This document shows, one piece after another, positions 1,358 to 27,386 of a stretch of 64,000 nucleotides of DNA (its first letter is position 1; every line of letters begins with the position of its first letter). Below the pieces are notes generated by a model that made no database searches, was not told where the DNA came from, and saw only the letters and a list, made by a program, of their open reading frames with translations. Origin of the DNA: Candidatus Bathyarchaeota archaeon (GTDB lineage Archaea > Thermoproteota > Bathyarchaeia > 40CM-2-53-6); contig CAVSBL010000002.1 in assembly GCA_963726255.1 (NCBI GenBank), positions 1,376,001 through 1,440,000 of the forward strand, given 5' to 3'. The translations under genes were made by a program, and so were the position numbers.

Positions 1358-1534
1358 TTGGCAAAGAAATTCAAGTGCGCTGATATTGGGATGAAATGTG
1401 ACTATGAGGAAACCGCAACCACAACCGAGCAGCTCATGCCCAAACTTGCTGCTCACGCCAAAGCCGCGCACGGAATGAGTGAAATTCCGACAGAAATCAT
1501 GGCGAAGATCACCGCGGCAATCAAGGACATCTAG
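1358..1534 (+). CDS. DUF1059-family small metal-binding protein (58 aa)
   Basis: Below ORF-track cutoff. SD AGGAGGTGA then TTG; MAKKFKCADIGMKCDYEETATTTEQLMPKLAAHAKAAHGMSEIPTEIMAKITAAIKDI has the C-x6-C...H-x4-H pattern. Confidence 0.85.
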   Translation: MAKKFKCADIGMKCDYEETATTTEQLMPKLAAHAKAAHGMSEIPTEIMAKITAAIKDI

Positions 1535-1565
1535 AAAGAGAAGGTCCGAATACCACACTCTTTTC

Positions 1566-2219
1566 CTATTTTGTACGTTTCCGAGTTGTCCTTTTAATTA
1601 ATCCGCGTATGACAACTGCACATTGAATCCCTCGATAACTAAGATTCCTCTCCAATCTTTCCTGTTCGACCCGAGTATTGGGTCCCTTAGCGAGCGGATT
1701 GTTAACGTACGTTGCATCGCCTGAATAACCTGTCAAGACGACCCAATGGGGCAAGTCCTCTTTTCCTCCGAACAATGAAGTCGAAGTAAGGAATAGTGGA
1801 ATATGCGACTTGGTCAGAAGCGCCTTCAGGGTTTGCAGTTTGATCGGACGATTGACATTGCTCAGTCCCATTGCGTGAAACTTACTTCGAATATCTCCGT
1901 AGAGAAGTTCAAGAACTCCTCTGTCAAGGGAAGGGATCTCGTGTGAAATCTCGTCTATGAAGGAGTGCTTTCGAGATATTCCCATGGTGAATGCTGAGAA
2001 TCCGCGTCTTGCTGCAGCCACAGCTAATCCTTCCTTACTGGTCCCGTAACTCTCGACAAGATTTGACTCCCGCCAAATATCCAACTCAAGCCCCTTGGTA
2101 AGGCGGAGCGCGGGTTGGAAGAACTTCATAGCCATCAACAGGCTAGCCGGACCGCAAGTAAACTGAGACGTTTGTTTGTGGAATGGGACTCGAAGGTGGA
2201 GTGAGTTCTTCGACTTCAC
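1566..2219 (-). CDS. Peptidase C39-like (DUF3335-type) protein
   Basis: QTSQFTCGPASL nucleophile motif, PHWVVL, NNP. Confidence 0.8.
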   Translation of the reverse strand: MKSKNSLHLRVPFHKQTSQFTCGPASLLMAMKFFQPALRLTKGLELDIWRESNLVESYGTSKEGLAVAAARRGFSAFTMGISRKHSFIDEISHEIPSLDRGVLELLYGDIRSKFHAMGLSNVNRPIKLQTLKALLTKSHIPLFLTSTSLFGGKEDLPHWVVLTGYSGDATYVNNPLAKGPNTRVEQERLERNLSYRGIQCAVVIRGLIKRTTRKRTK

Positions 2220-2404
2220 TTGAGTTTCTTCCTACGCTTCCTACCATACGTTCAATATTCGTTTCCTTACTATCTGTCAGCCGTTAATCACATAAATCGA
2301 TAAGGCATTTCAGGGAGTATGAGCAGGATACTCTTGGAAAATCCACACTGAAGAATGAATCCAGCCGATCGTCATACCTGATCATTAAGCAGTTTTCATT
2401 AGCT

Positions 2405-2998
2405 TCACAATAACTGAAGGATTATGCTTTCGAGCGTAGCGTAGCTCTGCTGACCCTGAAGTGATGTTACGATCGCGCCATTTCTGTTAATTATGAAGAA
2501 AGTTGGTGTGACGTTAACGCCAAACATACTCATGGTGGAACCGCTTGAATCATACACGTATGTCAAACTCGAGCCGTAGTCCCTTATGAACTTCGCCACG
2601 TCATTCTTCGTGGTGCCCTGCCACGGGCCGGAAACGCTAATGAATGCCACGTTGCCGCCGTATTTTTGGTGCAGCTGTTCTAGGATTGGAACCATCGATT
2701 GGCAATGAGAACACCAAGGTTCCATGAACTCGAGGAATACAACTTTCCCCTGAAGTGAGGAAAATGAGAAGGATTCACCCGTTGCGCCGCTTGGTCCGAT
2801 CACAGGTAACGTGAAATCAAGTGGGTTGGAAGACCGTGACGATGTTGTGGACGAATTTTCAGTCTGTTGTTGGATGGGCAGAGGAGGCTGCGTTAGTGAG
2901 TAGATCACCCAAGCTGCAATCATAATTATCAATGGAATGGCGATCTTTTCCGCCCTGCTTAGTCTCTGTTTCTTTTCTGAGGGCTTCTTTGATGACAT
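2405..2998 (-). CDS. Membrane-anchored TlpA/ResA-like thiol-disulfide oxidoreductase
   Basis: N-terminal basic stretch plus TM helix; WCSHC; GVNVTPTFF. Confidence 0.88.
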   Translation of the reverse strand: MSSKKPSEKKQRLSRAEKIAIPLIIMIAAWVIYSLTQPPLPIQQQTENSSTTSSRSSNPLDFTLPVIGPSGATGESFSFSSLQGKVVFLEFMEPWCSHCQSMVPILEQLHQKYGGNVAFISVSGPWQGTTKNDVAKFIRDYGSSLTYVYDSSGSTMSMFGVNVTPTFFIINRNGAIVTSLQGQQSYATLESIILQLL

Positions 2999-3097
2999 AA
3001 CCCTTACCAGAAAATCTGCAGAGCACTTATCTAAGATTAGGATGACGGCCCATTCACACAGCAGGAAGTCAGTACTTAAGATGGGAAGGATGTCTGA

Positions 3098-3250
3098 GTC
3101 GAAAGAAACAGGTTAACTGTTCGCGGTATGGATTGTTTTGATGGGACACCAGTACTGGACATAATGCCATACAAGGACGACTACAAAGTCGACGATTATG
3201 GTATTGCCGCTTGGTATCATGGACTAATCAGTGAAGCAACAAGACGTGCG
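3098..3250 (+). pseudogene. C-terminal remnant of a TsaA/TrmO paralog
   Basis: VERNRLTVRGMDCFDGTPVLDIMPYKDDYKVDDYGIAAWY aligns with the C-terminus of the intact gene at 18645-19163; in-frame TGA at 3095 and N-terminal two-thirds absent; 3' limit approximate. Confidence 0.75.
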
Positions 3251-3291
3251 TGGCACTGTCTTAGTACTCTCCACTATCTCGTCTCGTGCGC

Positions 3292-5703
3292 TCATAGCCC
3301 TAATTTTCTGAACGCGAAGTACTTGGGGAAGTCTACGGCAAGCGTGAATATTGCAGAGAGTCCCAAGACAACGAGAACTTGCATAGTCGTGACGGATGGT
3401 AGGACAACGCCGTAGATTCCCAGCAAGGCAAATCCAATCACCGTAGCTAAGCTAGAGATGGCAAGTTCCCTTCCGGGTCGAGAGGCCCAGAAGTGTCCTC
3501 TCTCCCTCACAATAAGGACTCTAAACTGGCTGGTAAAGACTAGCGTAAGCAGCACAAAGGTCTGAAGGGTTCCCAGCTCCATGTGATAGTAATTCGTGCC
3601 GATGAAGATGACGATGGCACCTTCGACAACCAAGAGTAGGCCGATAATGAGTGAGGCTAACGTGATGTTCTTCACGTTCCAGATGTTTGGGCTGCGCGTG
3701 GTCTTCACGTTATCAGTGGCAAGTGACATTGTTACGAAGTCATTTGCAAACACCAACAAAACCATGCCCAGCACTGAGAGTACGACGTGGTGCAACCAGA
3801 AGAAGCCCAAGACTAGTATGCCGACGAACTGTATTACTTTCGTGACCTTGTTGACAACCCACGTTAGCATGCGCTGGTAGATTTGCCTGCTCGTGCCTAT
3901 TGCGTTGAGGATAACTCTGAGTCCGGGTTCGGTTAGAACTATGCTGGCAGATGCTTTTGCAACATCGGTTGAGTCGCTTACAGCTATGCCTACTTCCGCT
4001 TGTTTGAGCGCAGGTGAATCGTTCACACCGTCTCCTGTCATTCCTACCATGTGGCCTCTCGATTGCAGAAGTTTCACCAGTTTGTACTTGTCTTCTGGAT
4101 AAATCTCAGCCAATCCATCATATTCATCCAGAGCGCTTGCTTGATCCGCTTCTGATAGTTTCTCTAGATTTGACATCGAGTAGATTCGATTGCCAATGTC
4201 TACTTGGCTTGCGATCTCTCTGGCTATTGCCACGTTATCTCCTGTCAGCATTTTCGTCTTTACGCCTAAGCGGTTCAGTTCCCCTATCGTTTCCTTCGAG
4301 TCGGGTCTGGGAGGATCGGCCAGCGGGAGGAGCCCTACAAGCTTGAAGTTATCTAGGTCATTATCCTCTGATTTGGCGACCGCGATTGTTCGATAGCCTT
4401 TCTTGGATAATGATTCCACATTATTGTTGACATTTTTCCTAGTTTCATCGTCTACTTTGCATAGAGACAGAATTACTTGTGGTGCTCCTTTGGCTACTCT
4501 GAATCGTTTTCCGTCGTGTTCGACGATTGCTTCGGATCTCTTTGTCGCTGGATCAAATGGAGTAAACGACTCTTGCGTATATTGGATGGGGGCGGAGAGG
4601 TTCTTTGCGTAGTCGATCACGGCGAGGTCAATTACGTCTCTTATCTCCTCTTTCGAAGCTAGTCTCGCCATTATTGCGACGTCGTTCTTTTCGAACCCTT
4701 GGAAAGGGATAGGGTCGGTGACAGAGAGTTTGTTCTGTGTGATTGTACCGGTCTTGTCTAGGCATAGCACTTCCATTGATGCTGCGTCCTCAATGGAATT
4801 GAGCCTAGTTACTAGAGCGCCTTCTTTGGCAAGTTCCATTGCGCCCACCGCGAGAACGATGGCAAAGACTGCAGGTAGCGCGACTGGGACGGAACCCATG
4901 AGAAAGATTAGAGCGAACCTTACGATGGTTAGGGCGTCTACGACTCGTGTTAAAGCCGCGTCTAATACCACGAACGCCAGGGCCGCAATGCCAATGTACA
5001 TTGCATATTTGACAATGGCCGACATGATCTGCTCTTGGTGCGATTTGGGTTTGGCGATTTTCACTAATTCAGCAGTCTTTCCGAAGTATGTGTGGGCTCC
5101 CGTGTTGAGTACGAGAGCTTTCGCTTCGCCTCGCTTTATGATAGAACTCGAATAGAGAATCCCGGATTGATGTGCGGTCACGGGAAGTGATTCACCGGTC
5201 AACGCTGACTGATCAACGGACACTTCTCCAGCGACTATCTTGCCGTCAGCTGGTATTAGGTCGCCCAAACCAACCTGTATGATGTCGCCTGGAACTATTT
5301 CCCGAGCATCCTTGACGACCCATTCTCCATTCCGCAGAATTTTCGCTTTGATTGCTAGCCGTTTCTTCAGGAGTTCAAGTGCTTTCAGAGAGCTGCGCGT
5401 ATGGTGAAATCCGATGATAGCGTTCAGGGTCAGAAGCCCAAAGACTATTCCCACTTCCAGGTAGTGGCCTATGACGTATGAGAGAACCATCGTTAATTCC
5501 AAAAGCCAAGGCATTGGCCCCCAATACCGCGCCAAGAAATCGACAAACGGGTTCTTCCGCTTCTCCGATAATTCGTTGTAGCCAGATTCGCTAATGCGTC
5601 TCTTTGCCTCATTTTCGCTCAGACCGTTTGTTGACGTGCTCAATGCCGAGTACGCGGCTTCAATTGTTACGTCGGCAAAGTCTGCTGTCGTTCTAGTTGT
5701 CAT
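3292..5703 (-). CDS. P3A-type plasma-membrane proton-efflux P-type ATPase
   Basis: TGES, DKTGT, KGAPQ, DPPR, GDGVND; WGPMPW, PVALPAV and M6 ANDF are typical of P3A H+-ATPases. Confidence 0.9.
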   Translation of the reverse strand: MTTRTTADFADVTIEAAYSALSTSTNGLSENEAKRRISESGYNELSEKRKNPFVDFLARYWGPMPWLLELTMVLSYVIGHYLEVGIVFGLLTLNAIIGFHHTRSSLKALELLKKRLAIKAKILRNGEWVVKDAREIVPGDIIQVGLGDLIPADGKIVAGEVSVDQSALTGESLPVTAHQSGILYSSSIIKRGEAKALVLNTGAHTYFGKTAELVKIAKPKSHQEQIMSAIVKYAMYIGIAALAFVVLDAALTRVVDALTIVRFALIFLMGSVPVALPAVFAIVLAVGAMELAKEGALVTRLNSIEDAASMEVLCLDKTGTITQNKLSVTDPIPFQGFEKNDVAIMARLASKEEIRDVIDLAVIDYAKNLSAPIQYTQESFTPFDPATKRSEAIVEHDGKRFRVAKGAPQVILSLCKVDDETRKNVNNNVESLSKKGYRTIAVAKSEDNDLDNFKLVGLLPLADPPRPDSKETIGELNRLGVKTKMLTGDNVAIAREIASQVDIGNRIYSMSNLEKLSEADQASALDEYDGLAEIYPEDKYKLVKLLQSRGHMVGMTGDGVNDSPALKQAEVGIAVSDSTDVAKASASIVLTEPGLRVILNAIGTSRQIYQRMLTWVVNKVTKVIQFVGILVLGFFWLHHVVLSVLGMVLLVFANDFVTMSLATDNVKTTRSPNIWNVKNITLASLIIGLLLVVEGAIVIFIGTNYYHMELGTLQTFVLLTLVFTSQFRVLIVRERGHFWASRPGRELAISSLATVIGFALLGIYGVVLPSVTTMQVLVVLGLSAIFTLAVDFPKYFAFRKLGL

Positions 5704-6010
5704 TGAATGAGTACGCCTATCAAGTGTTCACAAAAGCGGCAGTAACCTACCGGCGTTAGTAAGAGTTCCTGACACGATCAGACAAGTCGAAGTCGATTGA
5801 ATGTCAGTTGTGGAGGCAATGAACGAGAAGAGAATCGACCAGTCCGCGTTCTTCTCAGCAGGAGAGGCTAACTAGTAATCATGTACATCAAGCCCGTCGA
5901 GAAGAGGCATGAACGCAAAAATCACTGAGAATGCTCTTCGCCCAGAAGGATTCGTTTCATATCTTCGTATTGGTCCTTCGTGATCTCTCCGAGGGCAGAT
6001 CGCTTCTGCA

Positions 6011-6790
6011 CTATTTCTCGTCATAATTCCAAAAGTGATTTGACCGTTTTTGACCTCCGACCAGCGCAACCACGCCTAGCGTCATCTCCTCCGTAAGCGT
6101 ACGTTGAAAGCCGATAGTGGACAGTGCTTCGGCGATTTCATCCGCGGAGGTTGATTTCAGTATCGAATTTGCAAGGTAGATCAAAGTATACTTCCAGTGC
6201 GCGGAAACTAATCCCCCAAGAGCGGGAATCACATAAAACATATGAAGCCTGAAAACTCGCCACACCAAAACGTTCTCTGGCCTAACAAAATCCACCGAGA
6301 GAAACCATCCCTGTTGAAGCAACACCCTCAGCGACTCACGAAACACAGCCATTTTGTCGCCTAAATTGCGCAACGCTAGTCCGACCGTCACGTACCTGAA
6401 GGTTCCGCTCCGAAAAGGAAGAAATTCTCCGACAGCCCTCACAAAGTCTACATCACAACGGCCCCTTGCCGCATGTTTTTTCCGGTTGGCTATACGCAGC
6501 ATCGAGGGGCTCAGATCCAGGCCTACGACGTAACCACTCCACACGTTCAAGCGTGCCAGGTTGAAAGTCACCAATCCGGTGCCGCACGCTACGTCTAGGA
6601 CCTTAGTTTTATTGGAAAAGACCATCTTGGCAAACATACGTCTCCGCCAAACCCAATCTAGCGAAAGCGTCATCAGATGAACAAGAACATCATACTCGTT
6701 CTCAACATCTGTGAAGATTGCTGTTACAAACTTGGCTTTGTCCACGAATTTGGTAGGAATTTCGATCAGCGTCATGCGTTTCTGGACCAC
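6011..6790 (-). CDS. UbiE/MenG family quinone C-methyltransferase
   Basis: YD...SL.LDWVWRR, LDVACGTG, LRNL, YLANSI. Confidence 0.82.
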   Translation of the reverse strand: MVQKRMTLIEIPTKFVDKAKFVTAIFTDVENEYDVLVHLMTLSLDWVWRRRMFAKMVFSNKTKVLDVACGTGLVTFNLARLNVWSGYVVGLDLSPSMLRIANRKKHAARGRCDVDFVRAVGEFLPFRSGTFRYVTVGLALRNLGDKMAVFRESLRVLLQQGWFLSVDFVRPENVLVWRVFRLHMFYVIPALGGLVSAHWKYTLIYLANSILKSTSADEIAEALSTIGFQRTLTEEMTLGVVALVGGQKRSNHFWNYDEK

Positions 6791-7067
6791 CTACTGAAAG
6801 GAATGGTTAATTTGTGCAGCAAGCCGGCTAAATCGATGTTTGCACATGCACCACTTGGAGGAAGACAGAGTAATAGATGAGATAAGAAGGCTATCCACTA
6901 TCACATGGGGAGCGCTCGCAAACTACTCTTATGGCATACCGAGTATTGTCTCTCGCCTTCTGAAGCCGCATCGTCGCCTGCGGCTTGCTGTTTAGCGCCG
7001 GACGGAAAGAGTTATTTTGCATAAGTATTCACTAACATGCCGTTAGAATACGGACAAGGGCAGGATA

Positions 7068-7580
7068 ATGCTGAAGATTAGGATCAGTTGGCCTAAGCTT
7101 CTCTTGCTTGTGGCCATGTCTGCATTCGGACTATGGGCCTCTTCCATGGTGATAGTCGTCTACTATACGATGAAACAGTCTTTGCCTTTCTGTCCTCTGC
7201 AGCAAGGGCCAGGGATAGTGGTGAATTGCAATGCCGTACTGGACAGCAGGTACAGTATGGTCTTTGGCGTTCCTCTTGAGCTATTCGCTGTCGCGTACTT
7301 TGTCATCAATCTCTTATTGGTCTATTTCATTGCTTTTGGGAGTGATCGCTTGTTTAGAACCTCACTGAATGCCTTGTTTGGATGGAGATTCCTAGGCATT
7401 GTAATTGTACCATACCTCGTCTTCGTCGAGCTGTTTCTGGTTAAGGCCATTTGCGTTTACTGTACTATTATGCACGTTGCGATCATTGCAGATTTTCTCA
7501 TCATCAGCTACCTTCTTTTCTATAAGAAACGCGGCCTGATAGAAGCGGTAGAAGCCACCACGAGCGGGAGGGCAGCGTGA
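7068..7580 (+). CDS. Vitamin K epoxide reductase (VKOR) family protein
   Basis: Loop cysteines CPLQQGPGIVVNC..VL.SRYS..FGVP; active-site ICVYC; about 4 TM helices. Confidence 0.9.
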   Translation: MLKIRISWPKLLLLVAMSAFGLWASSMVIVVYYTMKQSLPFCPLQQGPGIVVNCNAVLDSRYSMVFGVPLELFAVAYFVINLLLVYFIAFGSDRLFRTSLNALFGWRFLGIVIVPYLVFVELFLVKAICVYCTIMHVAIIADFLIISYLLFYKKRGLIEAVEATTSGRAA

Positions 7581-7892: not shown

Positions 7893-8762
7893 ATGCTGAA
7901 CCAGAGTATGCCTTCAGTCGATCGCGTGAAGCTCACAGTTCTTGTTGAAGATTCCGTAAACAAGCCTGGTCTCACAGCGAAACATGGCCTGTCGTTCCTC
8001 GTCGAAACTGCCTCAGCTGCTTCCAACTCAAGAATTCTCATGGATGCAGGACCGCCTCCCGACATAGCCTTACGCAACGCTAACGTGTTGAAAGCTGACA
8101 TCCGCCATTTGGACACCATAGTCATTAGCCACGGACACTATGACCATGCAGGCGGGTTAGTCGAGATCCTAAGAAATATCTCTCGGCCAACTCCCGTGAT
8201 CATTCACCCCTTGGCCTTTGTTCCAAAATTCTCCCTCAAACCCGATCTCAGATTCATAGGGCCAGACTTTGATCAAAGATCGGTTAGAGACGCCGGCGGA
8301 GTGCTGCTGCTTGCTCGCAACTCCGTCGCGATAGCAACCGGTGTTATCACAAGCGGCGAGGTTTCCAGGGAAACCGACTTTGAGAAAGTCGAGGGATTCT
8401 GGACGGTTAAGGACCAGCGTTTCGCTCAGGACCAGATGACTGACGATCAAGCACTCCTGATAAACGTGAGACAGAAAGGCCTCGTCGTCATATCAGGATG
8501 CGCCCACTCCGGAATCGTAAACACCGTAAGGCACGCGCAGAAGATGACTGGAACAAACAATATTCATGCAATCATCGGCGGCTGCCATCTGGAAAATGCT
8601 GATGACAAGAGAATCCAGGCAACCCTTGATCAGCTCATAAGAATTCAACCGAAGTTACTCTATCCATGTCACTGCACAGGCTCCAAAGCAGTGAATAGGC
8701 TCATTGACTCCTTCGGAGATCGGTGTAAAACTACTCGTACTGGAGACATCATTGAGCTCTGA
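7893..8762 (+). CDS. MBL-fold metallo-hydrolase (MJ0301/MJ0448-like)
   Basis: HGLS, SHGHYDHAGG, GCAHSG, GGCH, HCTG. Confidence 0.9.
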   Translation: MLNQSMPSVDRVKLTVLVEDSVNKPGLTAKHGLSFLVETASAASNSRILMDAGPPPDIALRNANVLKADIRHLDTIVISHGHYDHAGGLVEILRNISRPTPVIIHPLAFVPKFSLKPDLRFIGPDFDQRSVRDAGGVLLLARNSVAIATGVITSGEVSRETDFEKVEGFWTVKDQRFAQDQMTDDQALLINVRQKGLVVISGCAHSGIVNTVRHAQKMTGTNNIHAIIGGCHLENADDKRIQATLDQLIRIQPKLLYPCHCTGSKAVNRLIDSFGDRCKTTRTGDIIEL

Positions 8763-10883: not shown

Positions 10884-11073
10884 GCCTTTAACGGTTTCGA
10901 GTTCGCCCTATGAGGAAGGAATCAAGGAACGGGATCCCGTTACTTGGGGAGATGTTTCCGGAGATTCAGGCCCAGACAGCTTTTGGAGTGAAGCAGATAC
11001 TTGTTGTGGCGCTCTTTACTCTCTACATTGTACGTTACGAAGGTTTTAGTTGTCATGCGAGTTAGGTTCTGGT

Positions 11074-11715
11074 ATGTCACGCAAGATTGACTGTGCGGCT
11101 TGTGGCATTAACCCCTGCTCCTCAGGTAATAGCAATCAATCCTTTGATGGTTGTCCCATGAACACGGCTGAAGAGGTGCTTGAGAATGCTTCCGAGGTCT
11201 ACAAGTCAGAGTTGAGGGAGATGGCTCATGCAGCGGCTGTTGTTGAGGCGAAAGGATACATGAGGTGGACTAGGGTCGAGGACACGATTGAGTTCGCGCG
11301 AGCCATGGGTTATAGGAAGCTTGGCATAGCCTGCTGTGTTGGCTTGAAGAGGGAGGGGGCCATTCTGGAAAGCATCCTACGCAAGAATGGGTTCGAGGTG
11401 TCATCGGCCGTCTGTAAAACGGGCGGCGTCCCCAAGGAGGAACTGGGCATCAAAGATGAGGAAAAGATACGTCCAGGCGGATTTGAAGCTATGTGCAATC
11501 CCATTGCGCAAGCGATGCTCTTGGATTCAGCTGGTTCCCAGCTGAACATACTCGTCGGCTTATGCGTTGGCCACGACGCTTTATTCGCAAAGGCGTCCCA
11601 GGCTCCTGTAACAACGCTAGTAGCCAAGGACAGAGTGCTCGGCCACAACCCCGTCGCAGCCATCTACAATCATCAATCCTACTACAGGAAGAGACTGTAC
11701 GAGGACCACGCTTAG
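11074..11715 (+). CDS. DUF1847 family Cys-rich metal-binding protein
   Basis: TRVEDTIEFA, GIACCVGL, CKTGG, MCNPIAQA, GLCVGHD, KDRVLGHNP. Confidence 0.9.
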   Translation: MSRKIDCAACGINPCSSGNSNQSFDGCPMNTAEEVLENASEVYKSELREMAHAAAVVEAKGYMRWTRVEDTIEFARAMGYRKLGIACCVGLKREGAILESILRKNGFEVSSAVCKTGGVPKEELGIKDEEKIRPGGFEAMCNPIAQAMLLDSAGSQLNILVGLCVGHDALFAKASQAPVTTLVAKDRVLGHNPVAAIYNHQSYYRKRLYEDHA

Positions 11716-11726: not shown

Positions 11727-12890
11727 TCAGCTGAACGGTTTGCGGAGGGGTATTACCGAAACCTGAACCGTAGATGGAACCTTCTCTGCGATTTGGTTGG
11801 ATTCTTGCATCAATAGTGCCAGCGGCCGGTACAAGGCATGAACGAATTTCGTGAAAGGAGCGGTTATGAGAAGGTTGAAGACTGCTATGAGATGGACCAC
11901 GTAAGTAACATATGCAGCTAAGGGAAAGTCTGCGAGCATGAACAGGTCTAGCAGAAATCCAGTAACACCAACGAGAAGAAGCAAGAGCAAGAAAGTCCAG
12001 TCACTGAAGTGACTGTAGCTTGCATACTCTTCTTTGCCTTCGAACCGTTTGTAGATGAAGTAGACCGATCCGTACGTAAGGGCCAAGCCCGCCACTATTC
12101 CCAAGCCACGAGGTACATAGTAGGACAACTGTAGACTGTACGCGTCGATCGTGTAGTCGAGTGTTGTTGCGGCTAGCAGGCCTAGGAATCCCCAAACGAG
12201 GAGGAGGTGTGCCCAGTACCTGTTGCTGTCTGAACAGTCATGAAAGCGCTTCTGAAGGGCAACCTCGTTTACTATCACTTTGAATAGTGCCTCGAACTTC
12301 GAGGATAAACTCTTAATCCCTTTTGGGGATGACAATTCGTCCCTGCGTTGTGATACGTATCTATGCATGATTCCGAGGTTCGCGAGGGCGCTGAGGCCTA
12401 CAAAAACACCCATGAGTAGTCCTGTCCTGTCGACAGCGTCCATTGGAATGAAGGTGAACATATCGACGCTACTCAAGTCGACGGGTCCGTGGAACATCAT
12501 TATGATAGCGGCCAGAAACAAAGAGAGCGCCGCTAAACTGCCGTAGAAGGCGATCTTGCTGCTGTACATTGCGTCGGATATTCTTCCCCAGCTGTATTTC
12601 TTGATCGCATATCGCCTTGCCGCCATCATGAAAGCTCCTGGGTCGGCGCTGCGGGGGCATGTTTCTGTGCATTCGCCACAGTAGTCGCAGGACCACAGTT
12701 CAGCTGAGGAGAGAAGTTTGTCCTCCAGGCCGACCGCTGCGTACCTAATCATCTTTCTGGGGAATGCTTCGTCCTCCGTTGATAGCGGACAGACTGCTGT
12801 GCAATTGCCGCAATTGAAGCATGCGCTGATATCGAAAGCGCCAACTTTCTTTATCTTGCCCAGTAGGTTTGGGTTGACTGTTAAGGCCAG
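11727..12890 (-). CDS. QmoC/HdrE-like membrane subunit (2x[4Fe-4S] plus TM domain with His ligands)
   Basis: CFNCGNCTAVCP and CDYCGECTETCP; about 6 TM helices with WAHLL, VVHLI, KFVHALY; probable CTG start 8 nt after GGAGG (ORF track starts at 12962). Confidence 0.82.
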   Translation of the reverse strand: MALTVNPNLLGKIKKVGAFDISACFNCGNCTAVCPLSTEDEAFPRKMIRYAAVGLEDKLLSSAELWSCDYCGECTETCPRSADPGAFMMAARRYAIKKYSWGRISDAMYSSKIAFYGSLAALSLFLAAIIMMFHGPVDLSSVDMFTFIPMDAVDRTGLLMGVFVGLSALANLGIMHRYVSQRRDELSSPKGIKSLSSKFEALFKVIVNEVALQKRFHDCSDSNRYWAHLLLVWGFLGLLAATTLDYTIDAYSLQLSYYVPRGLGIVAGLALTYGSVYFIYKRFEGKEEYASYSHFSDWTFLLLLLLVGVTGFLLDLFMLADFPLAAYVTYVVHLIAVFNLLITAPFTKFVHALYRPLALLMQESNQIAEKVPSTVQVSVIPLRKPFS

Positions 12891-12891
12891 T

Positions 12892-13179
12892 TCATCTCCC
12901 TCCTTTTGCCAGCTTGTACTTCCAGTAGCCATCTTCGCTCTTCTCTGATGGTTCCAGGACATTGTAGTGTGTCAGTGTGAGCACGTAGTAGGAGGTGGTG
13001 TGCACGTCCATCTCAAGTTCCTTAGCTATCTCTGGGATGGTTTTTTTGTGTGTGGCGACAGCTTTCGTTATCTTCCCCTTGATCTTTGCCTGTTCCCTCA
13101 TCAGGCGGCGTAATTCTTCTGAGGGTGTGAGATTGTATTTTTCTCGGAGTCGCATCAACGTACTTGCCTGCAAGATCAC
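12892..13179 (-). CDS. Small winged-HTH protein inside the Hdr/Qmo-like operon
   Basis: KTIPEIAKELEMD...SYYVLTL..Y...DGYWKY; GTGA overlap with the upstream hdrA stop. Confidence 0.7.
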   Translation of the reverse strand: MILQASTLMRLREKYNLTPSEELRRLMREQAKIKGKITKAVATHKKTIPEIAKELEMDVHTTSYYVLTLTHYNVLEPSEKSEDGYWKYKLAKGGR

Positions 13180-15128
13180 TGCCTCCGTGCCATCGCCTTG
13201 ATCATGGCTTCGATCTGCTCGTTACCTAAGCCTTTCAACTCAATGGCGCCAGTCGGGCAGACAGCCACGCATGCGCCGCAGCCTGTGCATCTCGCTGCGT
13301 TTACCCAAGCCTTTTCCCCCTTGCCACTTTCGTCTTTGATTTCAATCGCGTCGTACTTGCACTCTTGTATGCAAAGTCTATTGATAGAGCAGGTTTCGGG
13401 ATTGACGTGAGCCACGAATGGTTCGAGAATAAGTTCCTTTTTCAGGGCTATGTTGGCTGCTTTGCTGGCAGCAGCCTCCGCCGAAGCTACCGTCTCGCTG
13501 ATATCTTTGGGTGCCTGAGCTGTGCCCGCAATGTAAATCCCGGCCATGGCAGTCTCGACAGGCCTCAGCTTCGGATGCATTTCTAGGAGGAATTTGTCCT
13601 TACCTTTTGATATCTTCAACATGCTGTAAAGCTGTTCGTTGCTCTTTCTCGGAACCATTCCTGTTACGAGAACGACCATGTCAACGGGCAACTCCAACTC
13701 CTCCTCGATGGGTGTCAGGAGGTCTTTGACCTTGACTACAAGCTTGCCATTGCTCTGGCGCACGGTGGGCGGAACTTCATCCGCATGTTTGAAGAAAAGC
13801 ACATTCTCTTTTGACGCTTGTTCGAAGAGCAGTTCGTTCAGTCCGTAGGTTCTGATGTCGCGATATATGTGATAGACATGGAGCCCCTTAATTTTATTCA
13901 GCAGAGAGAGTGAAACATTCATTGTAGCATTGCAGCAATACCGAGAACAATACTCGTTAACGTCTTGGTTTTCTCGCGTTGGAGTCTGTCTGCTTCCAAC
14001 ACAGTATATGAAAACGATCTCATGTACTTTATTCGGAATCCCCAACTCCATTAGCCTATGTAACTGCTGGAGCGTTACCACGTTCTTGTAAAGGCCGTAA
14101 CCAAATTCTCCAATCTTCGGTTCGTAGGGATCGAATCCCGTTGTGACAATTATGCTTCCGACCTTGATGCGGATGTTTTTCGGTTGTTCATTCAGGTCCA
14201 CCGCTTCGTTACATATCGCTTGAATCTGGCTCAAGCATTCGGGTGGGCAATGTTCTTTGTCAAGGGAGGGTATGGTGGGGTATGTTCCTTCATAGGGTGG
14301 AAGGATCGCTGCTCCGCGTTTGGTCAGCCCATAGTCGAATTCGTTTGGCACTCCTTGGACATCGGGGACTGATGCGATCCTGGGGCAGGTGGTCTTGAAG
14401 TATCGGGGTTTCGTGTTGATTTCGACTTTGAAGTTTCCGACGTATCCTTCCACAGAACTTATCTCTGAGTTGGTGTAGACGGCGATGTTCTCCTTCGATA
14501 GAACCTCCTGTACCATTTCTTTGGCGATTTCAGGCCCTGGTCGTCCCTGAGGATAGACTTGGGAGAGCTGTGGGACTCTTCCTCCTAGGAAGGGATCCTT
14601 TTCCACAAGATGCACCGCAATTCCGGCATTGGCCAAATCGACGGCGGCTCTTAGGCCTGCGACGCCTCCACCCACAACCATGACAGCCGGGGTTGATTCG
14701 GCGCTGATGCCTTCAAGAGGTTCGGACAGCCTAGAGTATGCCACGGCTGACCTAACCTGCCTTAGTGCTTTTTCGGTCGCCCCTTTCTTGTCTTCTGTGT
14801 GCGCCCACGAGGACTGTTCCCTGATGTTGACATGGTAGTAGGTGTAGGGGTTCAAGCCTGCTCTCTGGCACACATTTCTGAACGTGATCTCATGGAGCCT
14901 CGGAGAACAGGACGCTACTATCATTCTGTCAAGCTTGTTCGCTTTGACATCCTCTATCATTTCATTCTGTGAGGAATCGGAGCAGGCGAACATCACGTCC
15001 TTAGCGACGACGACATTTGCTTCTTTGGCTATTTCTTCGGTTACCTTCTTCACATCAACATAGTCTGAGATGTTTCCTCCGCAGTGGCAGACGTAGACGC
15101 CTATTCTACGCTGTTTGTCTTCGTCCAC
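13176..15128 (-). CDS. HdrA-family flavoprotein (QmoB-like, with N-terminal Cys domain and C-terminal ferredoxin)
   Basis: GVYVCHCGGN, ASCSP, GGGVAG, CVGSR...YCSRYCC, HPKLRPVET, CTGCGACVAVCP. Confidence 0.9.
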   Translation of the reverse strand: MDEDKQRRIGVYVCHCGGNISDYVDVKKVTEEIAKEANVVVAKDVMFACSDSSQNEMIEDVKANKLDRMIVASCSPRLHEITFRNVCQRAGLNPYTYYHVNIREQSSWAHTEDKKGATEKALRQVRSAVAYSRLSEPLEGISAESTPAVMVVGGGVAGLRAAVDLANAGIAVHLVEKDPFLGGRVPQLSQVYPQGRPGPEIAKEMVQEVLSKENIAVYTNSEISSVEGYVGNFKVEINTKPRYFKTTCPRIASVPDVQGVPNEFDYGLTKRGAAILPPYEGTYPTIPSLDKEHCPPECLSQIQAICNEAVDLNEQPKNIRIKVGSIIVTTGFDPYEPKIGEFGYGLYKNVVTLQQLHRLMELGIPNKVHEIVFIYCVGSRQTPTRENQDVNEYCSRYCCNATMNVSLSLLNKIKGLHVYHIYRDIRTYGLNELLFEQASKENVLFFKHADEVPPTVRQSNGKLVVKVKDLLTPIEEELELPVDMVVLVTGMVPRKSNEQLYSMLKISKGKDKFLLEMHPKLRPVETAMAGIYIAGTAQAPKDISETVASAEAAASKAANIALKKELILEPFVAHVNPETCSINRLCIQECKYDAIEIKDESGKGEKAWVNAARCTGCGACVAVCPTGAIELKGLGNEQIEAMIKAMARRQ

Positions 15129-16491
15129 TACTAGCCACCTCGATAGGGATTTTTCGCGTCGTCGTGTTCATGTAGGCTATTGAGTTCATGCAAGCGGCGC
15201 TTCCTTCGACCACTGAATCGGGTATATCTTTGGGTCCAGTTGCTGTTCCCGCAGCGAACACACCGTCAATGTTCGTTTTCATTGGGGCTACGTTCTGGTC
15301 AGGGCTCGTAACCCAGCCGACACTGTCCACCTTGAGTTGTTGGCCCTTGAAGAGATCAGGTGGACACACGTTTGGAAGCAGGCCAACGGACAGCACAGCT
15401 AAGTCATGCTCGGTCTTCGTCAGCTTTCCTCCGTTCTCAATGTCCTCATAGTGTAGTACGAGATTGCCGTTTTCTAACTGCTCTATCTTGGCAACCTTTC
15501 CTTTCACGAACCTGACGCCCATCGCCCTTGCTTGAACATAGAATTCCTCGAACCCTTTCCCATAGGCTCGGATGTCTATGTAGTAGATTGTGATGTCCGC
15601 TATGGGCAAAGCGCCCATCAAGAGCTGGGCCTGCTTTATCGAGTACATGCAACACACCTGAGAACAGTACGGGTTGCCCAGCGATGCGTCTCTTGAACCC
15701 ACACACAGAACATATGCAATGTTGGCGGGTTCCTTGCCGTCGGATGGTCTCACTATGGCGTGTGTTGGCCTTGTCGGAGCGAGGAGCCTTTCCATTTGCA
15801 TTGAGGTGATGACGTTGGGGTATTCGCTGAAATGATAATCGGTTTTGCGTTTTGCGTCGAAGAGCTGGAAACCTGTGGCCACTATGACGGACTTAGCTCT
15901 TAGCGTATGCCATTTCGGCGTCTGAAGGAAGTTGATGCTATTTGCGGGGCAGGCTCTCTCACAAGCGCCACAATACACACAATTCTCCATATCTATGACT
16001 GCAATCTTGGGTACTCCTGTCTCGAACGGAACGAAGATAGCTTTCCTTCCGACAAGCCCCAGGTCGTATTCGCTTGGGACTATCACAGGACAGGCATCTT
16101 CACACTGTCGGCATGCAGTGCATGCGGAGGCTTCCACGTATCGTGGCTTTTCAAAAATGCTAGCCTTGAATGACCCATCTTCCTCTTTTTCGACCGCCTT
16201 TACCTCAGAATAGGTCAGGATCTTGATGTACGGGTGATGGGTCGCCGCAGCCATTTTCGGCGTGGAAATGCAGCTGGCGCAGTCCATTGTGGGGAACGTT
16301 TTGCTGAGCTTGAACATGTTGCCACCTATGCTCGGCTCCTTCTCGACTATGATCACCCGTTTGCCCATATCTCCCAAATCAAGAGCGGCCTGCATTCCAG
16401 CGATTCCACCTCCAATTATGATGGCGTCGTAGCTCTCGTCGGGGAGAGTTTCGGGCTCTCCGAAACTGGGAATCTTCGGGTTTATGCTCAA
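15106..16491 (-). CDS. HdrA-family flavoprotein (QmoA-like core with inserted ferredoxin)
   Basis: GGGIAG, KTFPTMDCASC, CTACRQCEDACP, CVYCGACERACP, CVGSRD...YCSQVCC, GKGFEEFY, VKGK, GPKDIP. Confidence 0.9.
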   Translation of the reverse strand: MSINPKIPSFGEPETLPDESYDAIIIGGGIAGMQAALDLGDMGKRVIIVEKEPSIGGNMFKLSKTFPTMDCASCISTPKMAAATHHPYIKILTYSEVKAVEKEEDGSFKASIFEKPRYVEASACTACRQCEDACPVIVPSEYDLGLVGRKAIFVPFETGVPKIAVIDMENCVYCGACERACPANSINFLQTPKWHTLRAKSVIVATGFQLFDAKRKTDYHFSEYPNVITSMQMERLLAPTRPTHAIVRPSDGKEPANIAYVLCVGSRDASLGNPYCSQVCCMYSIKQAQLLMGALPIADITIYYIDIRAYGKGFEEFYVQARAMGVRFVKGKVAKIEQLENGNLVLHYEDIENGGKLTKTEHDLAVLSVGLLPNVCPPDLFKGQQLKVDSVGWVTSPDQNVAPMKTNIDGVFAAGTATGPKDIPDSVVEGSAACMNSIAYMNTTTRKIPIEVASSGRRQTA

Positions 16492-16940
16492 CTCGAAACC
16501 GCCATCCCTGTCTTTACAGGGCCTATCTTTTTCAGCGAAGTGTAGAAGTCTTTGATGCTCTTGGCGAATGATTCACCGCACACTGAGCAGACTCCTGTGA
16601 TCTTGACTCTCTCCGCTTCAATCCCGGTTTCTTTCAGCAGCTTCTGCGCAGTTTCGACTCTCTGCGCTGTCTTCGACACACACTCTTCGCCTAAGTATGG
16701 ACAGTCCGGGCCGTCAGCCGCGATGTAGACGCCTTCAAAACCGTCCTGAAGGGCGTGCACAATAAACTCTGGTCTTATCATCGATGAGCATGGGAGTCTG
16801 ATTATGCTGGTTGATGATGGGTAGTGTATGTGGGAGCTGCCCGCAAAGTCTATGCCGGGGTCTGAGATCGTAGACGTAGAAAAAATGAGGATTAGGGGCG
16901 TGTACTCCTCTTCCGAGGAGACGCGCCTTGGGGCATCCAC
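16488..16940 (-). CDS. MvhD/FlpD-like iron-sulfur subunit (atypical Cys pattern)
   Basis: DFAG..HIHYP...IIRLPCS..I.PEF...A...GFEGV...DCPY...GI..ER fits the MvhD fold. Confidence 0.8.
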   Translation of the reverse strand: MDAPRRVSSEEEYTPLILIFSTSTISDPGIDFAGSSHIHYPSSTSIIRLPCSSMIRPEFIVHALQDGFEGVYIAADGPDCPYLGEECVSKTAQRVETAQKLLKETGIEAERVKITGVCSVCGESFAKSIKDFYTSLKKIGPVKTGMAVSS

Positions 16941-17180
16941 CTACTTCTTCCTTCTGACATATATCTTCCAGTATCCGTTCTCTTCGACAGTGCCTAGGTA
17001 TTCGTGTCCCATTTTCTTTGCCCAGACTGGGATGTCGGCCTTTGTGCCCGGGTCAGATGAAATTGTTTCGAGAACCGCGCCTACTGGAACTGTGGCAATT
17101 GCTCTTTTTGTTTCGAGTAAGGGACCAGGGCAAGATGTCCCTCTTGCATCCACGACTTTATCCGCGGTGAGCTCTGACAA
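16941..17180 (-). CDS. tusA: TusA family sulfur carrier
   Basis: DARGTSCPGP...SSDPG...DIP.W. Confidence 0.92.
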   Translation of the reverse strand: MSELTADKVVDARGTSCPGPLLETKRAIATVPVGAVLETISSDPGTKADIPVWAKKMGHEYLGTVEENGYWKIYVRRKK

Positions 17181-17194
17181 GGCTTCTCGTTCCC

Positions 17195-17611
17195 CTAGAT
17201 GAAAAGCGTCACTTGGGATTCTGAGGCCTCTGTGATGTAGGTGCCGACGCCCGCTATTTCGTCCACTATTGGGTCGAGGTCATTCTTTGTTATGCCAAGT
17301 AGGTCGCAAGCAGTTGAGCAGGCCAGTATCTTCACTTTTCCCATTTCTTTCGCTTTCTTGAGCATGTCATACCAGGGTGGGGCGTTCGTTACTTTCAGTC
17401 GGTCTTTGATCATGGGAACGAGCTCTTCGAAGTCCTTGCTGAACTTCTGGTTTGTCTTTACCATATCTTTCTTGAAGCCGAGTAGTCCGTAGAATGTGAC
17501 GAATATGGTTACGTCCATGTCTGTGGCAACTGCGCCTGATGTGACTATTGCGAGGGGCATTAGCTTGTCGACTGTTCCGGAGTACATCATTATGGTCATC
17601 TTTCCTGCCAT
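17195..17611 (-). CDS. DsrE/DsrF-like (DsrE2/3-type) sulfur transferase
   Basis: SGTVDKL, IFVTFYGL, ACSTAC, GVGTY, TLFI C-terminus. Confidence 0.88.
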   Translation of the reverse strand: MAGKMTIMMYSGTVDKLMPLAIVTSGAVATDMDVTIFVTFYGLLGFKKDMVKTNQKFSKDFEELVPMIKDRLKVTNAPPWYDMLKKAKEMGKVKILACSTACDLLGITKNDLDPIVDEIAGVGTYITEASESQVTLFI

Positions 17612-17712
17612 ATTTTTCACCGTTCGGTTCATGTGGAAATCGCTATTTACGACTTCATCGTGATTCCACTCTTTGAGAATCAGACGTTCGCAATATACGC
17701 AAATTCTGATGT

Positions 17713-18069
17713 TTGAATACCGAAGAATGGACGTTGTCGCAGGTAAGGGAACGACTCTTCCAAATGCAGGCGGAGGTGTGCAAGATACTCTGTAACCCGC
17801 GGAGGCTGCAGCTTCTGCACGTGCTTCGTGACGGTGAGAAATCTGTCAGCGAATTATCTGCGGTCACGGGGTTGAGGCAAGCGAACGTTTCGCAGCACCT
17901 AGCTTTGATGCGACATCACAAGGTTGTCATCGAGAGGCGCTTGGGGAACTCCGTCTTCTATCACATATCGGACGGACGGATAAACAGCGCCTGCGACCTC
18001 ATCCTAGCAGTATTGTTGGACCAAGCGAGTGAGGATTCGAAACTCATCCGGATCGCACGAAGAGGTTAA
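17713..18069 (+). CDS. ArsR family transcriptional regulator, divergent from the dsrE-tusA-hdr operon
   Basis: CKILCNPRRLQLL...SVSEL...QANVSQHL...GNSVFY...SAC. Confidence 0.9.
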   Translation: MNTEEWTLSQVRERLFQMQAEVCKILCNPRRLQLLHVLRDGEKSVSELSAVTGLRQANVSQHLALMRHHKVVIERRLGNSVFYHISDGRINSACDLILAVLLDQASEDSKLIRIARRG

Positions 18070-18124: not shown

Positions 18125-18592
18125 GTGTCGGAAGTTTCAGCGAAGTTAAGACGAGTTGACGGCCTCAACTTCAACGTGGAAGTAGCAGGGGGCCGGAGAA
18201 TTCAGCTCAACTCTGCCGAAGATATGGGGCACGCGTTTACTCCCATGGAGCTTTTCCTTGTAGCACTCGCGGGTTGCACGGCCATGGACGTACAGTGGAT
18301 ATTGGAAAAGCAGAGACAGAAAGTCGAGGGACTTGAAATATCAGTTCGAGGAGTCCGTCGCGGAGAAGACCCTGCATACTATGAGAGGATTTACCTCGAA
18401 TATTCGGTGCGAGGTGAGGGCATCAGGAAAGATGCAGTTGAACGGGCAATACGCCTCTCGCAGGAAAAGTATTGCTCAGTCACAGCCATGATTAAGGAGA
18501 CCGTAAAGACACACATAACCTACACAATTGCGGATGGGAAAGGGAATGAACAGAAATTCGTCTATCCAGCTCTCTCCCATAATGTCCGGTGA
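18125..18592 (+). CDS. OsmC/YhfA family protein
   Basis: PMELFLVALAGCTAMDV...AIRLSQEKYCSV. Confidence 0.9.
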   Translation: MSEVSAKLRRVDGLNFNVEVAGGRRIQLNSAEDMGHAFTPMELFLVALAGCTAMDVQWILEKQRQKVEGLEISVRGVRRGEDPAYYERIYLEYSVRGEGIRKDAVERAIRLSQEKYCSVTAMIKETVKTHITYTIADGKGNEQKFVYPALSHNVR

Positions 18593-26854: not shown

Positions 26855-26999
26855 AATGGCCTCGGGGCGCTTTGCCCATATGCTCTTTTTATCCTTTCCA
26901 AGAATGGAAGCGTTTCACGTTACCGCAAATGGTAACTATTCAGTGCAAGAAGTACCCTTCAAAGTGACGCAGCAAACGCGTTGTGCAGGACCACGAATA

Positions 27000-27308
27000 T
27001 TGAGCAAGTATGTGAAAGTCTGCGAAGTCACCGACGTCCCCCCTGGAACCATGCACCCCGTTGACGTAGGTAAGAACAAACTCATGGTTGTCAATGTGGA
27101 CGGGGCTCTATACGTCTTAAACCGGATATGCACCCATGAAACCGCTGACCTTTCAACCGGTTTCCTCGTGGGCTCCGTCGTCACTTGCCCACTCCATCTG
27201 TCAAGGTTCGATGTGAAGAGTGGAACCGTGGAAAACCTGCCCGCGACGGTGCCCCTTGCGACGTACAGGTTGAAGGTTGAAGGGACAAGCGTATACGTAG
27301 AAGTGTAG
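27000..27308 (+). CDS. Rieske-type [2Fe-2S] ferredoxin
   Basis: CTHE...CPLH; probable TTG start at 27000. Confidence 0.88.
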   Translation: MSKYVKVCEVTDVPPGTMHPVDVGKNKLMVVNVDGALYVLNRICTHETADLSTGFLVGSVVTCPLHLSRFDVKSGTVENLPATVPLATYRLKVEGTSVYVEV

Positions 27309-27386
27309 AACCGTCCAGCGAAAACAGTTGGAGCACTTATATCACGTCATATACGTAATGCCAACGAGCGCACGCAGGTCTCGCTA

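Follow-up and report, generated by a model that had tools for sequence, protein, structure and literature searches.

A TusA- and DsrE-linked HdrA-HdrA-QmoC operon in a Bathyarchaeia genome may encode a membrane-anchored redox complex for carrier-bound sulfane sulfur

In a 64,000-nucleotide stretch of a Candidatus Bathyarchaeota archaeon genome (assembly GCA_963726255.1, contig CAVSBL010000002.1, positions 1,376,001 to 1,440,000; hereafter the window), seven open reading frames (ORFs) follow one another on the minus strand from 17632 to 11727, in the order dsrE, tusA, mvhD', short hdrA, long hdrA, a winged-helix gene and a qmoC-like gene (Table 1). A gap of 14 nucleotides (nt) follows dsrE and none follows tusA, and the next three junctions overlap by 4, 23 and 4 nt. 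The size of the last overlap varies with the start assigned to qmoC (41 or 71 nt); we favor the ATG at 12932 because close homologues start near the corresponding Met11. This spacing is operon-like, and a gene for a cysteine-bearing ArsR-family regulator diverges from the set, both as given in a preliminary description made from the sequence alone. On balance we incline to the view that the seven genes encode one membrane-anchored redox complex, with the assembly of their products into a single complex being predicted from the gene set.

The contig is 2.36 Mb long, in a genome of 2.42 Mb with an estimated completeness of 98.5% and an estimated bin contamination of 9.3%. This contamination leaves the operon unaffected, since the same contig carries archaeal RNA polymerase genes and the tetraether lipid synthase Tes. 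Below, L and G numbers denote sampled loci and sampled genomes, with G000 the source genome and C2 its contig. The nearest named relative is a 'Candidatus Bathyarchaeota' metagenome-assembled genome (MAG; L011) whose TusA, MvhD' and winged-helix proteins share 95-97% identity with those of the window. Its qmoC is broken into four frame-shifted pieces (L011 8989-10219) between intact neighbors, which assembly error or decay may explain.

Table 1. The operon and its divergent flank, in window coordinates (aa, amino acids)
Feature	Position	Strand	Length	Family matches and other properties
DsrE-family sulfur carrier	17195..17632	-	145 aa	PF13686 84.6 bits; conserved Cys105 in ACST motif
TusA sulfur carrier	16941..17180	-	79 aa	PF01206 87.1 bits; CPGP active-site Cys17
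MvhD-like subunit (MvhD')	16488..16940	-	150 aa	PF02662 101.1 bits; Cys118-x-x-Cys121
Short HdrA-type flavoprotein, QmoA-like	15106..16491	-	461 aa	NF040770 (HdrA2) 494 bits, model positions 141-563
Long HdrA-type flavoprotein, QmoB-like	13176..15128	-	650 aa	NF040770 (HdrA2) 576 bits over positions 1-642
Small winged-helix protein	12892..13179	-	95 aa	no Cys; between long hdrA and qmoC
QmoC-like fusion	11727..12962 (probable start 12932)	-		NF038018 226.9 bits (cut-off 300); PF02665 and Fer4 families
ArsR/SmtB-family regulator	17713..18069	+		PF01022 42.8 bits; NF033788 74.4 bits (cut-off 55); divergent
Divergent intergenic region dsrE/arsR	17633..17712		80 bp	presumed promoter and operator
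OsmC-family protein	18125..18592	+		PF02566 68.1 bits; 56 nt downstream of arsR

A profile search with the QmoC-like protein over one-genome-per-species contigs returned 568 relatives, and the best 80 loci were kept, all from named genomes. Six-frame ORFs from these loci were scored against the window proteins with phmmer, and loci with at least 6.2 kb of upstream sequence were counted as informative. Long hdrA lies directly upstream of qmoC in 72 of the 80. Three others (L042, L059, L067) end at a contig edge and their flanks still match, and five (L019, L023, L026, L027, L064) have a different order, qmoC-hdrAs-hdrAl-mvhD, where hdrAs and hdrAl are the short and long genes. Within the 72, tusA, mvhD and both hdrA genes were found in all 45 informative loci, together with dsrE in 35 (by phmmer), the winged-helix gene in 28 and arsR in or beside the cluster in 27. 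The winged-helix slot of further loci is occupied by a weak match or a divergent small ORF. Of the ten loci in which phmmer found no dsrE, two have dsrE-tusA-dsrE about 6 kb away, and in the other eight a divergent PF02635 ORF lies either beside tusA or downstream of qmoC, so that a DsrE-family gene is in or near the cluster in 45 of 45. Since all 45 informative related loci repeat it, the gene arrangement is far from chance, and the link to persulfide carriers seen in the preliminary description is upheld by the gene neighborhoods. Clustering of the remaining ORFs in the 80 loci gave no additional family in more than 12 of them, which argues that no separate catalytic enzyme accompanies the operon. 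By their record titles, the hosts include Bathyarchaeota, Acidilobaceae, Thermoplasmatota, Njordarchaeota, Aminicenantes, Anaerolineae and other Chloroflexota, Krumholzibacteria, Planctomycetota and Actinomycetota. One Njordarchaeota MAG has a second hdrAs-hdrAl pair straight after qmoC (L036 4559-8793), so that qmoC is flanked by both HdrA sets.

Both HdrA-type subunits have their best NCBIfam and PDB matches in HdrA. The long one aligns end to end with HdrA of 5odc, the MvhAGD-HdrABC complex of methanogens (471 bits, residues 6-647). It comprises the N-terminal four-cysteine domain, the flavin adenine dinucleotide (FAD) domain, a degenerate inserted ferredoxin domain and the C-terminal ferredoxin domain, with no fused MvhD domain; the DCSIC motif and both cysteine motifs of the inserted ferredoxin domain are missing. 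The short subunit has the FAD domain, the inserted 2x[4Fe-4S] ferredoxin domain and a DCxxC motif, and lacks the N-terminal and C-terminal domains of HdrA. From this domain content, the two together look like an asymmetric HdrA dimer with one copy per peripheral module. The short HdrA of many bacterial loci has a length of about 900 aa and includes a GltD/NfnB-like NAD(P)H module. The N-terminal domain of the QmoC-like protein aligns to HdrC of 7bkb, 8rvu and 5odc. Its eight cysteines for two [4Fe-4S] clusters, along with Cys243, His252, His357 and His375, are invariant in 81 of 81 sequences, and its membrane domain has about six hydrophobic segments. Family matches and motifs therefore agree with the Qmo-like architecture proposed at the outset, with two HdrA-family flavoproteins and an iron-sulfur (FeS) membrane subunit.

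The operon TusA has the fold and the CPxP active-site cysteine of the TusA sulfurtransferase family. Cys17 is retained in 56 of 56 cluster-linked homologues, and C17-P18-G19-P20 is invariant in the 37 sequences aligned. Scored with a profile of cluster-linked TusA, 20 held-out linked copies gave 116.8-154.9 bits and three unlinked TusA gave 38.8-50.9 bits; judged by such scores, the operon TusA is a distinct high-scoring subfamily tied to the complex. Cys105 of DsrE is likewise retained in 54 of 54 cluster-linked homologues, and the best solved relative of this protein is 2qs7 (111 bits, with ACST aligned). The DsrE2 equivalog (NF047629) was considered and rejected at 48.2 versus 210 bits, which leaves the protein in the wider PF13686 DsrE/DsrF/DsrH-like family only. 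By tblastn, the source genome has one TusA and one DsrE. The 95-aa protein is translationally coupled on both sides and has no Pfam or NCBIfam family. Its AlphaFold2 model (predicted local distance difference test score, pLDDT, 91) is a generic winged-helix fold, with best Foldseek matches to ArsR/SmtB and Z-alpha domains at E ~1e-3. A relationship to DsrD was dropped, given no Pfam match and only generic winged-helix matches in Foldseek; the resemblance is an analogy at most.

In canonical MvhD, a set of cysteines (CCNWC, MCSG and GCxxxDC) provides the ligands of a [2Fe-2S] cluster. MvhD' lacks the β1-loop and GC cysteines of this set: in an alignment to MvhD of 5odc, CCNWC is replaced by STSTIS and the first cysteine of GCHLGDC is lost, and Cys87, Cys118 and Cys121 are new. 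Cys118 and Cys121, which form a CxxC motif, are both present in 55 of 55 TusA-linked MvhD' and in none of four hydrogenase-linked MvhD (described below), and they are also absent from the canonical, HdrABC-linked MvhD of the source genome itself. Chloroflexota have MvhD' subtypes without Cys51, Cys80 and Cys87, and in some of them the CxxC pair are the sole subtype-conserved cysteines. A search of 1.84 billion representative sequences with an MvhD' profile gave 2490 matches at E <= 0.001 and 37 at E <= 1e-30. Among the best 150 of the 2490, 94 span the motif: 32 of these have the CxxC, 30 of them without any β1-loop cysteine, and the 62 without the CxxC all have one to three β1-loop cysteines. 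The AlphaFold2 model of MvhD' (pLDDT 87.8) superposes on MvhD with template modeling (TM) scores of 0.80-0.92 and root-mean-square deviations of 1.4-1.5 Å, and places the CxxC between a strand (112-116) and a helix (122-139), at the helix N-cap. Thiol-disulfide active sites have this geometry, with a CxxC at the N-terminus of a helix; the pair could also be relocated cluster ligands. Fused forms of MvhD' were not found among longer proteins at E <= 1e-10, which is weak evidence, and a complex prediction for MvhD' and TusA, each given as an alignment, scored 0.00 against a mark of 0.32 in runs without controls, which speaks neither for nor against their contact.

Just upstream of the window and 15 kb from the operon lies a paralogous cluster (C2:1368040-1375855, L091 8040-15855) with the order qmoC2-hdrAs2-hdrAl2-mvhD2-mvhG-mvhA-maturation protease, in which MvhD2 has the canonical cysteines and the hydrogenase is of the Mvh/Vhu-type [NiFe] kind. 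From its gene content this is a hydrogenase-fed HdrA/QmoC membrane complex without HdrBC; among the papers listed by a search on QmoC with Mvh, none names such a complex in its title or abstract opening. The five loci of alternative order are of this hydrogenase-linked type. Downstream sequence is available for four of them, with MvhG adjoining MvhD in all four and MvhA in three, and none of the other 76 loci has any hydrogenase match. The winged-helix gene was not detected in the hydrogenase-linked clusters. The two cluster types thus differ in substrate-side module (hydrogenase versus TusA/DsrE), adaptor, winged-helix gene and gene order.

We built a tree of 59 HdrA sequences, with L011 left out. 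It resolves four clades, each with 100% support in the Shimodaira-Hasegawa-like approximate likelihood ratio test (SH-aLRT): TusA-linked short, TusA-linked long, hydrogenase-linked short and hydrogenase-linked long. The sampled TusA-linked copies fall in their own clades (24 of 24 short, 24 of 24 long), and the subclades of both subunits match. Both HdrA copies of the window stand in these TusA-linked clades, in a tree built without reference QmoA or QmoB. The sister pairing of the TusA- and hydrogenase-linked short groups has 91% support, and the long pairing lies in an unresolved fork. As short groups with short and long with long, the short/long duplication is probably older than the split of the two cluster types. 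In a survey of 201 sampled genomes of the class, only the source genome has a TusA in the cluster-linked range (145.9 bits); the best score among the other 200 is 67.8 bits, and 89 of them have some TusA. The nearest HdrA sequences in the tree are from MAGs labeled Thermoplasmatota (68% identity) and 'Methanobacteriota' (61%), with the closer L011 not included. Because a single one of 201 class genomes carries cluster-type TusA and the nearest HdrAs in the tree come from other lineages, the operon is an accessory trait in this class, probably acquired laterally.

The ArsR-family protein has cysteines at positions 23, 27 and 93, of which the first and the last recur in a paralogue (window 327-644). 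At the position of the first sensing cysteine in the ILC/IMC motif of the HlyU and SqrR-type chain it has a histidine (LLHVL). A sensor of the SqrR/BigR/HlyU type was therefore ruled out by cysteine position, and the BigR model scores 46.7 versus 155 bits. The OsmC gene may possibly be co-transcribed with arsR, its membership being uncertain. In the intergenic region (17633-17712), only 6-bp inverted repeats were seen. This region shares a 10-mer, CTATTTACGA (window 17643-17652), with the region upstream of qmoC2 (L091 ~7975-7984, as the reverse complement), and the two regions also share an 8-mer, ATATACGC. With roughly 0.03 chance matches expected by a rough estimate, the shared 10-mer could reflect common regulation or chance.

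Elsewhere in the genome there is no aprA over the cut-off (best score 45.7 versus 641.75 bits), so the absence of adenosine 5'-phosphosulfate (APS) reductase noted for the operon holds genome-wide, and dsrA, dsrC and mcrA were not found in the genome either at its 98.5% completeness. Since these four genes are lacking, the operon would not serve APS, sulfite or methane metabolism. CCG domains, of the HdrB type, occur in four ORFs (C2:2.04-2.23 Mb), 640-850 kb from the operon, and in none of the operon or of the 64-kb window. The earlier statement that there is no HdrB is thus right for the operon and wrong for the genome: two of the CCG ORFs sit in hdrC-hdrB-hdrA clusters of their own, 700-840 kb off, one of which also has a canonical mvhD (tblastn). 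The combination that would have made these subunits ordinary Qmo or Hdr parts, namely aprAB or hdrB elsewhere and HdrA copies inside the QmoABC or HdrABC clades, is not what we see, as aprA is missing and each distant hdrB is accompanied by an hdrA and an hdrC of its own. Three rhodanese-domain proteins are encoded in the genome, which has no match to the YeeE/YedE thiosulfate transporter. At window 26856-28631, a gene for a Rieske-type [2Fe-2S] ferredoxin precedes one for a SufS-family cysteine desulfurase (TIGR01979, 622.7 bits); this SufS lies 10 kb from the operon and might supply TusA with sulfur.

A MenG-like gene in the window (6011-6790) had been taken to suggest that the cell makes quinone. 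It is there, barely over the cut-off of TIGR01934 (161.5 versus 158.35 bits), but quinone synthesis is doubtful. The genome gave no match to MqnA or MqnD, only enoyl-CoA-hydratase-level scores for MenB with none over the cut-off, and for MenA two UbiA-type prenyltransferases, both below the cut-off. The sole UbiD-family decarboxylase (L097 242-3516; C2:309700-312974) lies between mevalonate kinase and an aconitase-like dehydratase homologue. We assign it to the mevalonate pathway because mevalonate kinase adjoins it, and such a neighborhood is in keeping with the archaeal anhydromevalonate route and not with quinone synthesis. No heme b synthase was found over the cut-off in the genome, the best AhbD-like ORF being a radical SAM protein of the TIGR04053 family. 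None of these blanks is proof that the gene is missing. Indirect hints of quinone use come from the MenG/UbiE-family gene, the VKOR homologue beside it and a DoxD-Rieske pair, all by sequence similarity. The last of these is at window 59778-61261, where a gene for a DoxD/DoxX-family membrane protein (PF04173, 72.7 bits) overlaps a Rieske iron-sulfur protein gene. A quinone pool as the electron partner of the complex is accordingly doubtful.

Compared with known systems, the operon matches none of canonical HdrABC, canonical QmoABC-AprAB and sHdr, as had been stated beforehand. Canonical QmoABC, of sulfate reducers and green sulfur bacteria, has a QmoB with a fused MvhD-like domain and has been proposed to work by electron confurcation, according to the available text of PMC3333476. 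The operon resembles it in having two HdrA-related FAD/FeS subunits, a QmoC with an HdrC-like FeS domain and a cytochrome-b-type membrane domain, and an MvhD-like module. It differs in that aprBA is missing from the genome, QmoC falls short of the family cut-off, the MvhD module is separate and has different cysteines, and TusA, DsrE and a winged-helix protein are added. With MvhAGD-HdrABC of methanogens it shares the long HdrA, the MvhD fold and the HdrC-like N-terminus of QmoC, and the paralogous cluster retains MvhAG. However, the operon has no HdrB noncubane-cluster site, a short/long pair stands in for the HdrA homodimer, a membrane domain is found where HdrB would bind, and sulfur-carrier genes take the hydrogenase position. 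The sHdr system is a soluble, Hdr-related sulfur-oxidizing system with HdrB1/B2 and HdrC1/C2 that requires the lipoate-binding protein LbpA and, in the accessible parts of PMC11094781 and PMC6067878, is always accompanied by TusA and DsrE-family transferases. The operon, like sHdr, pairs an Hdr-related flavoprotein system with TusA and DsrE-family proteins; unlike it, it has two HdrA paralogues, a membrane QmoC and no CCG subunit. Neither HdrB nor a stand-alone HdrC is encoded in the operon, and for LbpA no genome-wide search was made.

The closest published relative is type II QmoABC (Chernyh et al., 2020, as relayed in the available text of PMC8477390 and PMC10504309), in which the A and B subunits resemble HdrA. 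The same texts place it in the sulfate reducers 'Ca. Vulcanisaeta moutnovskia' and Ammonifex degensii, report it also without Dsr and Apr, and treat it as an APS reductase partner or leave its role open. The operon is likewise Qmo-shaped, with two HdrA-like soluble subunits and a QmoC distinct from the canonical one, and its family too occurs with and without Apr and Dsr. In contrast, the accessible descriptions of type II make no mention of tusA, dsrE, a separate MvhD-like gene, the CxxC or a winged-helix gene. Among 401 sampled genomes of the phylum of the window, 25 have aprA over the cut-off, and 12 of these were searched with the QmoC-like protein. Eight of the 12 gave no match at all and two (G160 and G167) gave a full-length match. 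In each of the latter, the sole full-length QmoC-like locus is the complete dsrE-tusA-mvhD-hdrAs-hdrAl-wHTH-qmoC cluster (wHTH, the winged-helix gene), and it lies over 600 kb away from aprA. G280 has a different set next to aprA, with genes for an HdrC-like protein, an HdrA-like protein of 827 aa and a membrane protein, and this HdrA-like protein falls outside both TusA-linked clades. Since two aprA-bearing genomes carry this cluster as their sole full-length QmoC-like locus, the operon family probably corresponds to the published type II Qmo. The constant companion of the family is tusA, not aprBA. In the accessible literature (subscription papers and supplements lay outside the search) we found no description of a tusA/dsrE-linked HdrA-HdrA-QmoC operon. 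The parts belong to known families; their combination, the altered adaptor and the strict link to tusA are new relative to the searchable literature.

Taken together, we modestly favor the proposal that this Hdr/Qmo-type complex moves electrons between a membrane carrier and sulfane sulfur bound to TusA and DsrE. We infer the substrate from the contrast between the paralogues, as the hydrogenase of the one is replaced by TusA and DsrE in the other and the adaptor there has an invariant CxxC at a helix N-terminus. In the proposed arrangement, the short and long HdrA-type FAD/FeS proteins would form a heterodimer that jointly has one copy of each peripheral HdrA module, and MvhD' would be the MvhD-fold adaptor on the cytoplasmic side. 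The substrate would be sulfane sulfur, as persulfide or possibly thiosulfonate, on Cys17 of TusA and Cys105 of DsrE, and the CxxC of MvhD' would be the thiol-redox site that joins sulfur to the electron chain. In QmoC, the HdrC-like clusters would hand electrons on to the membrane domain, which would connect to a lipid-soluble carrier. We lean towards reduction as the direction in this organism, because the host is an H2-using anaerobe without genes for sulfate or sulfite reduction. Carrier-bound sulfur would then be reduced to sulfide, in a respiratory role or for the removal of reactive sulfur, under control of the thiol-bearing ArsR. In this archaeon the hydrogenase-linked paralogue could feed the same membrane pool.

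Several observations weigh against this proposal. The catalytic role of the CxxC as a thiol-redox site is a conjecture, because neither an HdrB-type site nor any other active site known to reduce sulfur is present in the complex. In the subtype of the window, the CxxC together with Cys51, Cys80 and Cys87 could instead be a relocated set of FeS-cluster ligands; an FeS cluster held by MvhD' alone is argued against by the subtypes that keep two cysteines only. The NAD(P)H module of the bacterial short HdrA is absent from the archaeal protein in the window. A di-heme domain of the NarI type needs four histidines, and QmoC keeps three invariant ones. The membrane carrier and even the heme content are putative, as there is no recognized menaquinone pathway and no heme b synthase over the cut-off. 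The regulator lacks the first cysteine of SqrR/HlyU-type sensors. Finally, only six of the 45 genomes with a TusA-linked cluster have a second QmoC-like gene, so the hydrogenase-linked partner is not a general feature, and we rejected a chain from H2 to sulfur as a general feature for the same reason.

Among the other explanations, a non-bioenergetic stress system deserves most attention, although we consider it unlikely. Here the complex would remove reactive sulfane sulfur, such as persulfides and polysulfides, in anaerobes upon induction via a thiol-sensing ArsR, and the membrane subunit would be only an electron source. The divergent cysteine-bearing ArsR and the presence of arsR in or beside 27 of the 45 related clusters fit this, as do the OsmC gene after arsR and the OsmC homologues within ~4 kb of three Chloroflexota clusters (L066, L068, L084). 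The window is also rich in genes for thioredoxin-fold proteins, AhpC/TSA, VKOR, superoxide dismutase and a second OsmC, and the rarity of the operon in its class is what one would expect of an accessory trait. On the other hand, for detoxification a complex of seven genes, with a membrane anchor, two flavins and numerous FeS clusters, is an elaborate solution, and the sensor cysteine missing from ArsR is one found in characterized sulfide sensors. It is far less probable that TusA and DsrE traffic sulfur for biosynthesis (thiolated tRNA, molybdopterin or FeS clusters) and that the complex keeps the carriers or an intermediate reduced. TusA of E. coli is a hub for tRNA thiolation and molybdenum-cofactor synthesis, the operon holds the sole TusA and the sole DsrE of the genome, and a SufS is nearby. 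But since 200 of the 201 class genomes lack cluster-type TusA, 89 of them with some other TusA, the cluster is not a housekeeping need; its TusA belongs to the distinct subfamily described above, and no biosynthetic genes recur beside the 80 related loci.

We hold it equally improbable that the operon is the electron-input half of a heterodisulfide reductase whose HdrBC is encoded elsewhere, acting on a low-molecular-weight or protein heterodisulfide. The genome does offer candidates in its two hdrC-hdrB-hdrA clusters and two further CCG-domain ORFs. Yet both hdrB genes have their own hdrA and hdrC, and in one case mvhD, at their distant positions, no CCG gene recurs beside the 80 loci, and the genome has no heterodisulfide carrier of the DsrC type. 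Least probable of all, and barely credible to us, is a genuine type II QmoABC that passes electrons to APS reductase with tusA and dsrE as bystanders. The Qmo-like architecture, the occurrence of type II Qmo with HdrA-like subunits in 'Ca. Vulcanisaeta moutnovskia' and Ammonifex degensii (PMC10504309 and PMC8477390, in their available text) and the cluster in the two aprA genomes of the same phylum would be in keeping with it. The source genome, however, has neither aprA over the cut-off nor dsrA or dsrC, the two aprA genomes keep dsrE and tusA in a cluster remote from aprA, most of the aprA genomes searched have no QmoC-like match, the aprA-adjacent HdrA-like protein of G280 is of another kind, and, in the accessible accounts, the authors of type II themselves report it without Dsr and Apr.

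The proposal of a complex for carrier-bound sulfane sulfur can be taken further, in a version that we regard as speculative and rather improbable. The TusA-linked and hydrogenase-linked clusters would then be two versions of a single undescribed class of HdrA-based, membrane-coupled, electron-bifurcating enzymes, whose high-potential branch consists of QmoC and the membrane carrier instead of HdrBC and the heterodisulfide. For the TusA-linked version, a relay of protein persulfides from TusA/DsrE to the CxxC of MvhD' would serve as the two-electron substrate, with a new kind of active site in the MvhD fold, and the sulfide/sulfane couple would be linked to ferredoxin and to the membrane carrier. 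As rough figures, the sulfur couple lies near -270 mV, menaquinone near -75 mV and ferredoxin near -450 mV. The two paralogous complexes together would make up an H2-to-sulfur respiratory loop in this archaeon.

Some other features of the surroundings are recorded here. A gene for a cysteine-rich DUF1847 protein (11050-11715, 208.8 bits) is convergent with qmoC, with 12 nt between the two gene ends; it does not recur beside the related clusters. A group of thiol-redox and quinone-type genes at window 327-7580 begins with the second cysteine-bearing ArsR (327-644), directly before a double thioredoxin-fold protein (649-1311), and includes an AhpC/TSA-like gene (2405-2998) and the MenG/UbiE-family methyltransferase gene (6011-6790), which is divergent from the VKOR homologue (7068-7580). 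RNA polymerase subunit A is encoded at window 33614-37435 as a single 1273-aa ORF that covers Rpb1 domains 1-5; most archaea have this subunit as two separate parts, A' and A'', and a few lineages have it undivided.

If the favored proposal is right, many uncultured anaerobes that are mostly regarded as fermenters would have a dedicated membrane complex for the redox chemistry of protein-bound sulfane sulfur. Its carriers, which include Bathyarchaeia, Thermoplasmatota, Njordarchaeota, Aminicenantes, Krumholzibacteria and Chloroflexota, would then represent a hidden branch of the anoxic sulfur cycle, and metagenomic 'type II Qmo' genes, now counted towards sulfate reduction, would need a different reading. 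The paralogue pair in this genome provides a clean comparison, with the same core connected to a hydrogenase via a canonical MvhD in one case and to TusA and DsrE via a CxxC-bearing MvhD in the other, and it highlights two cysteines.

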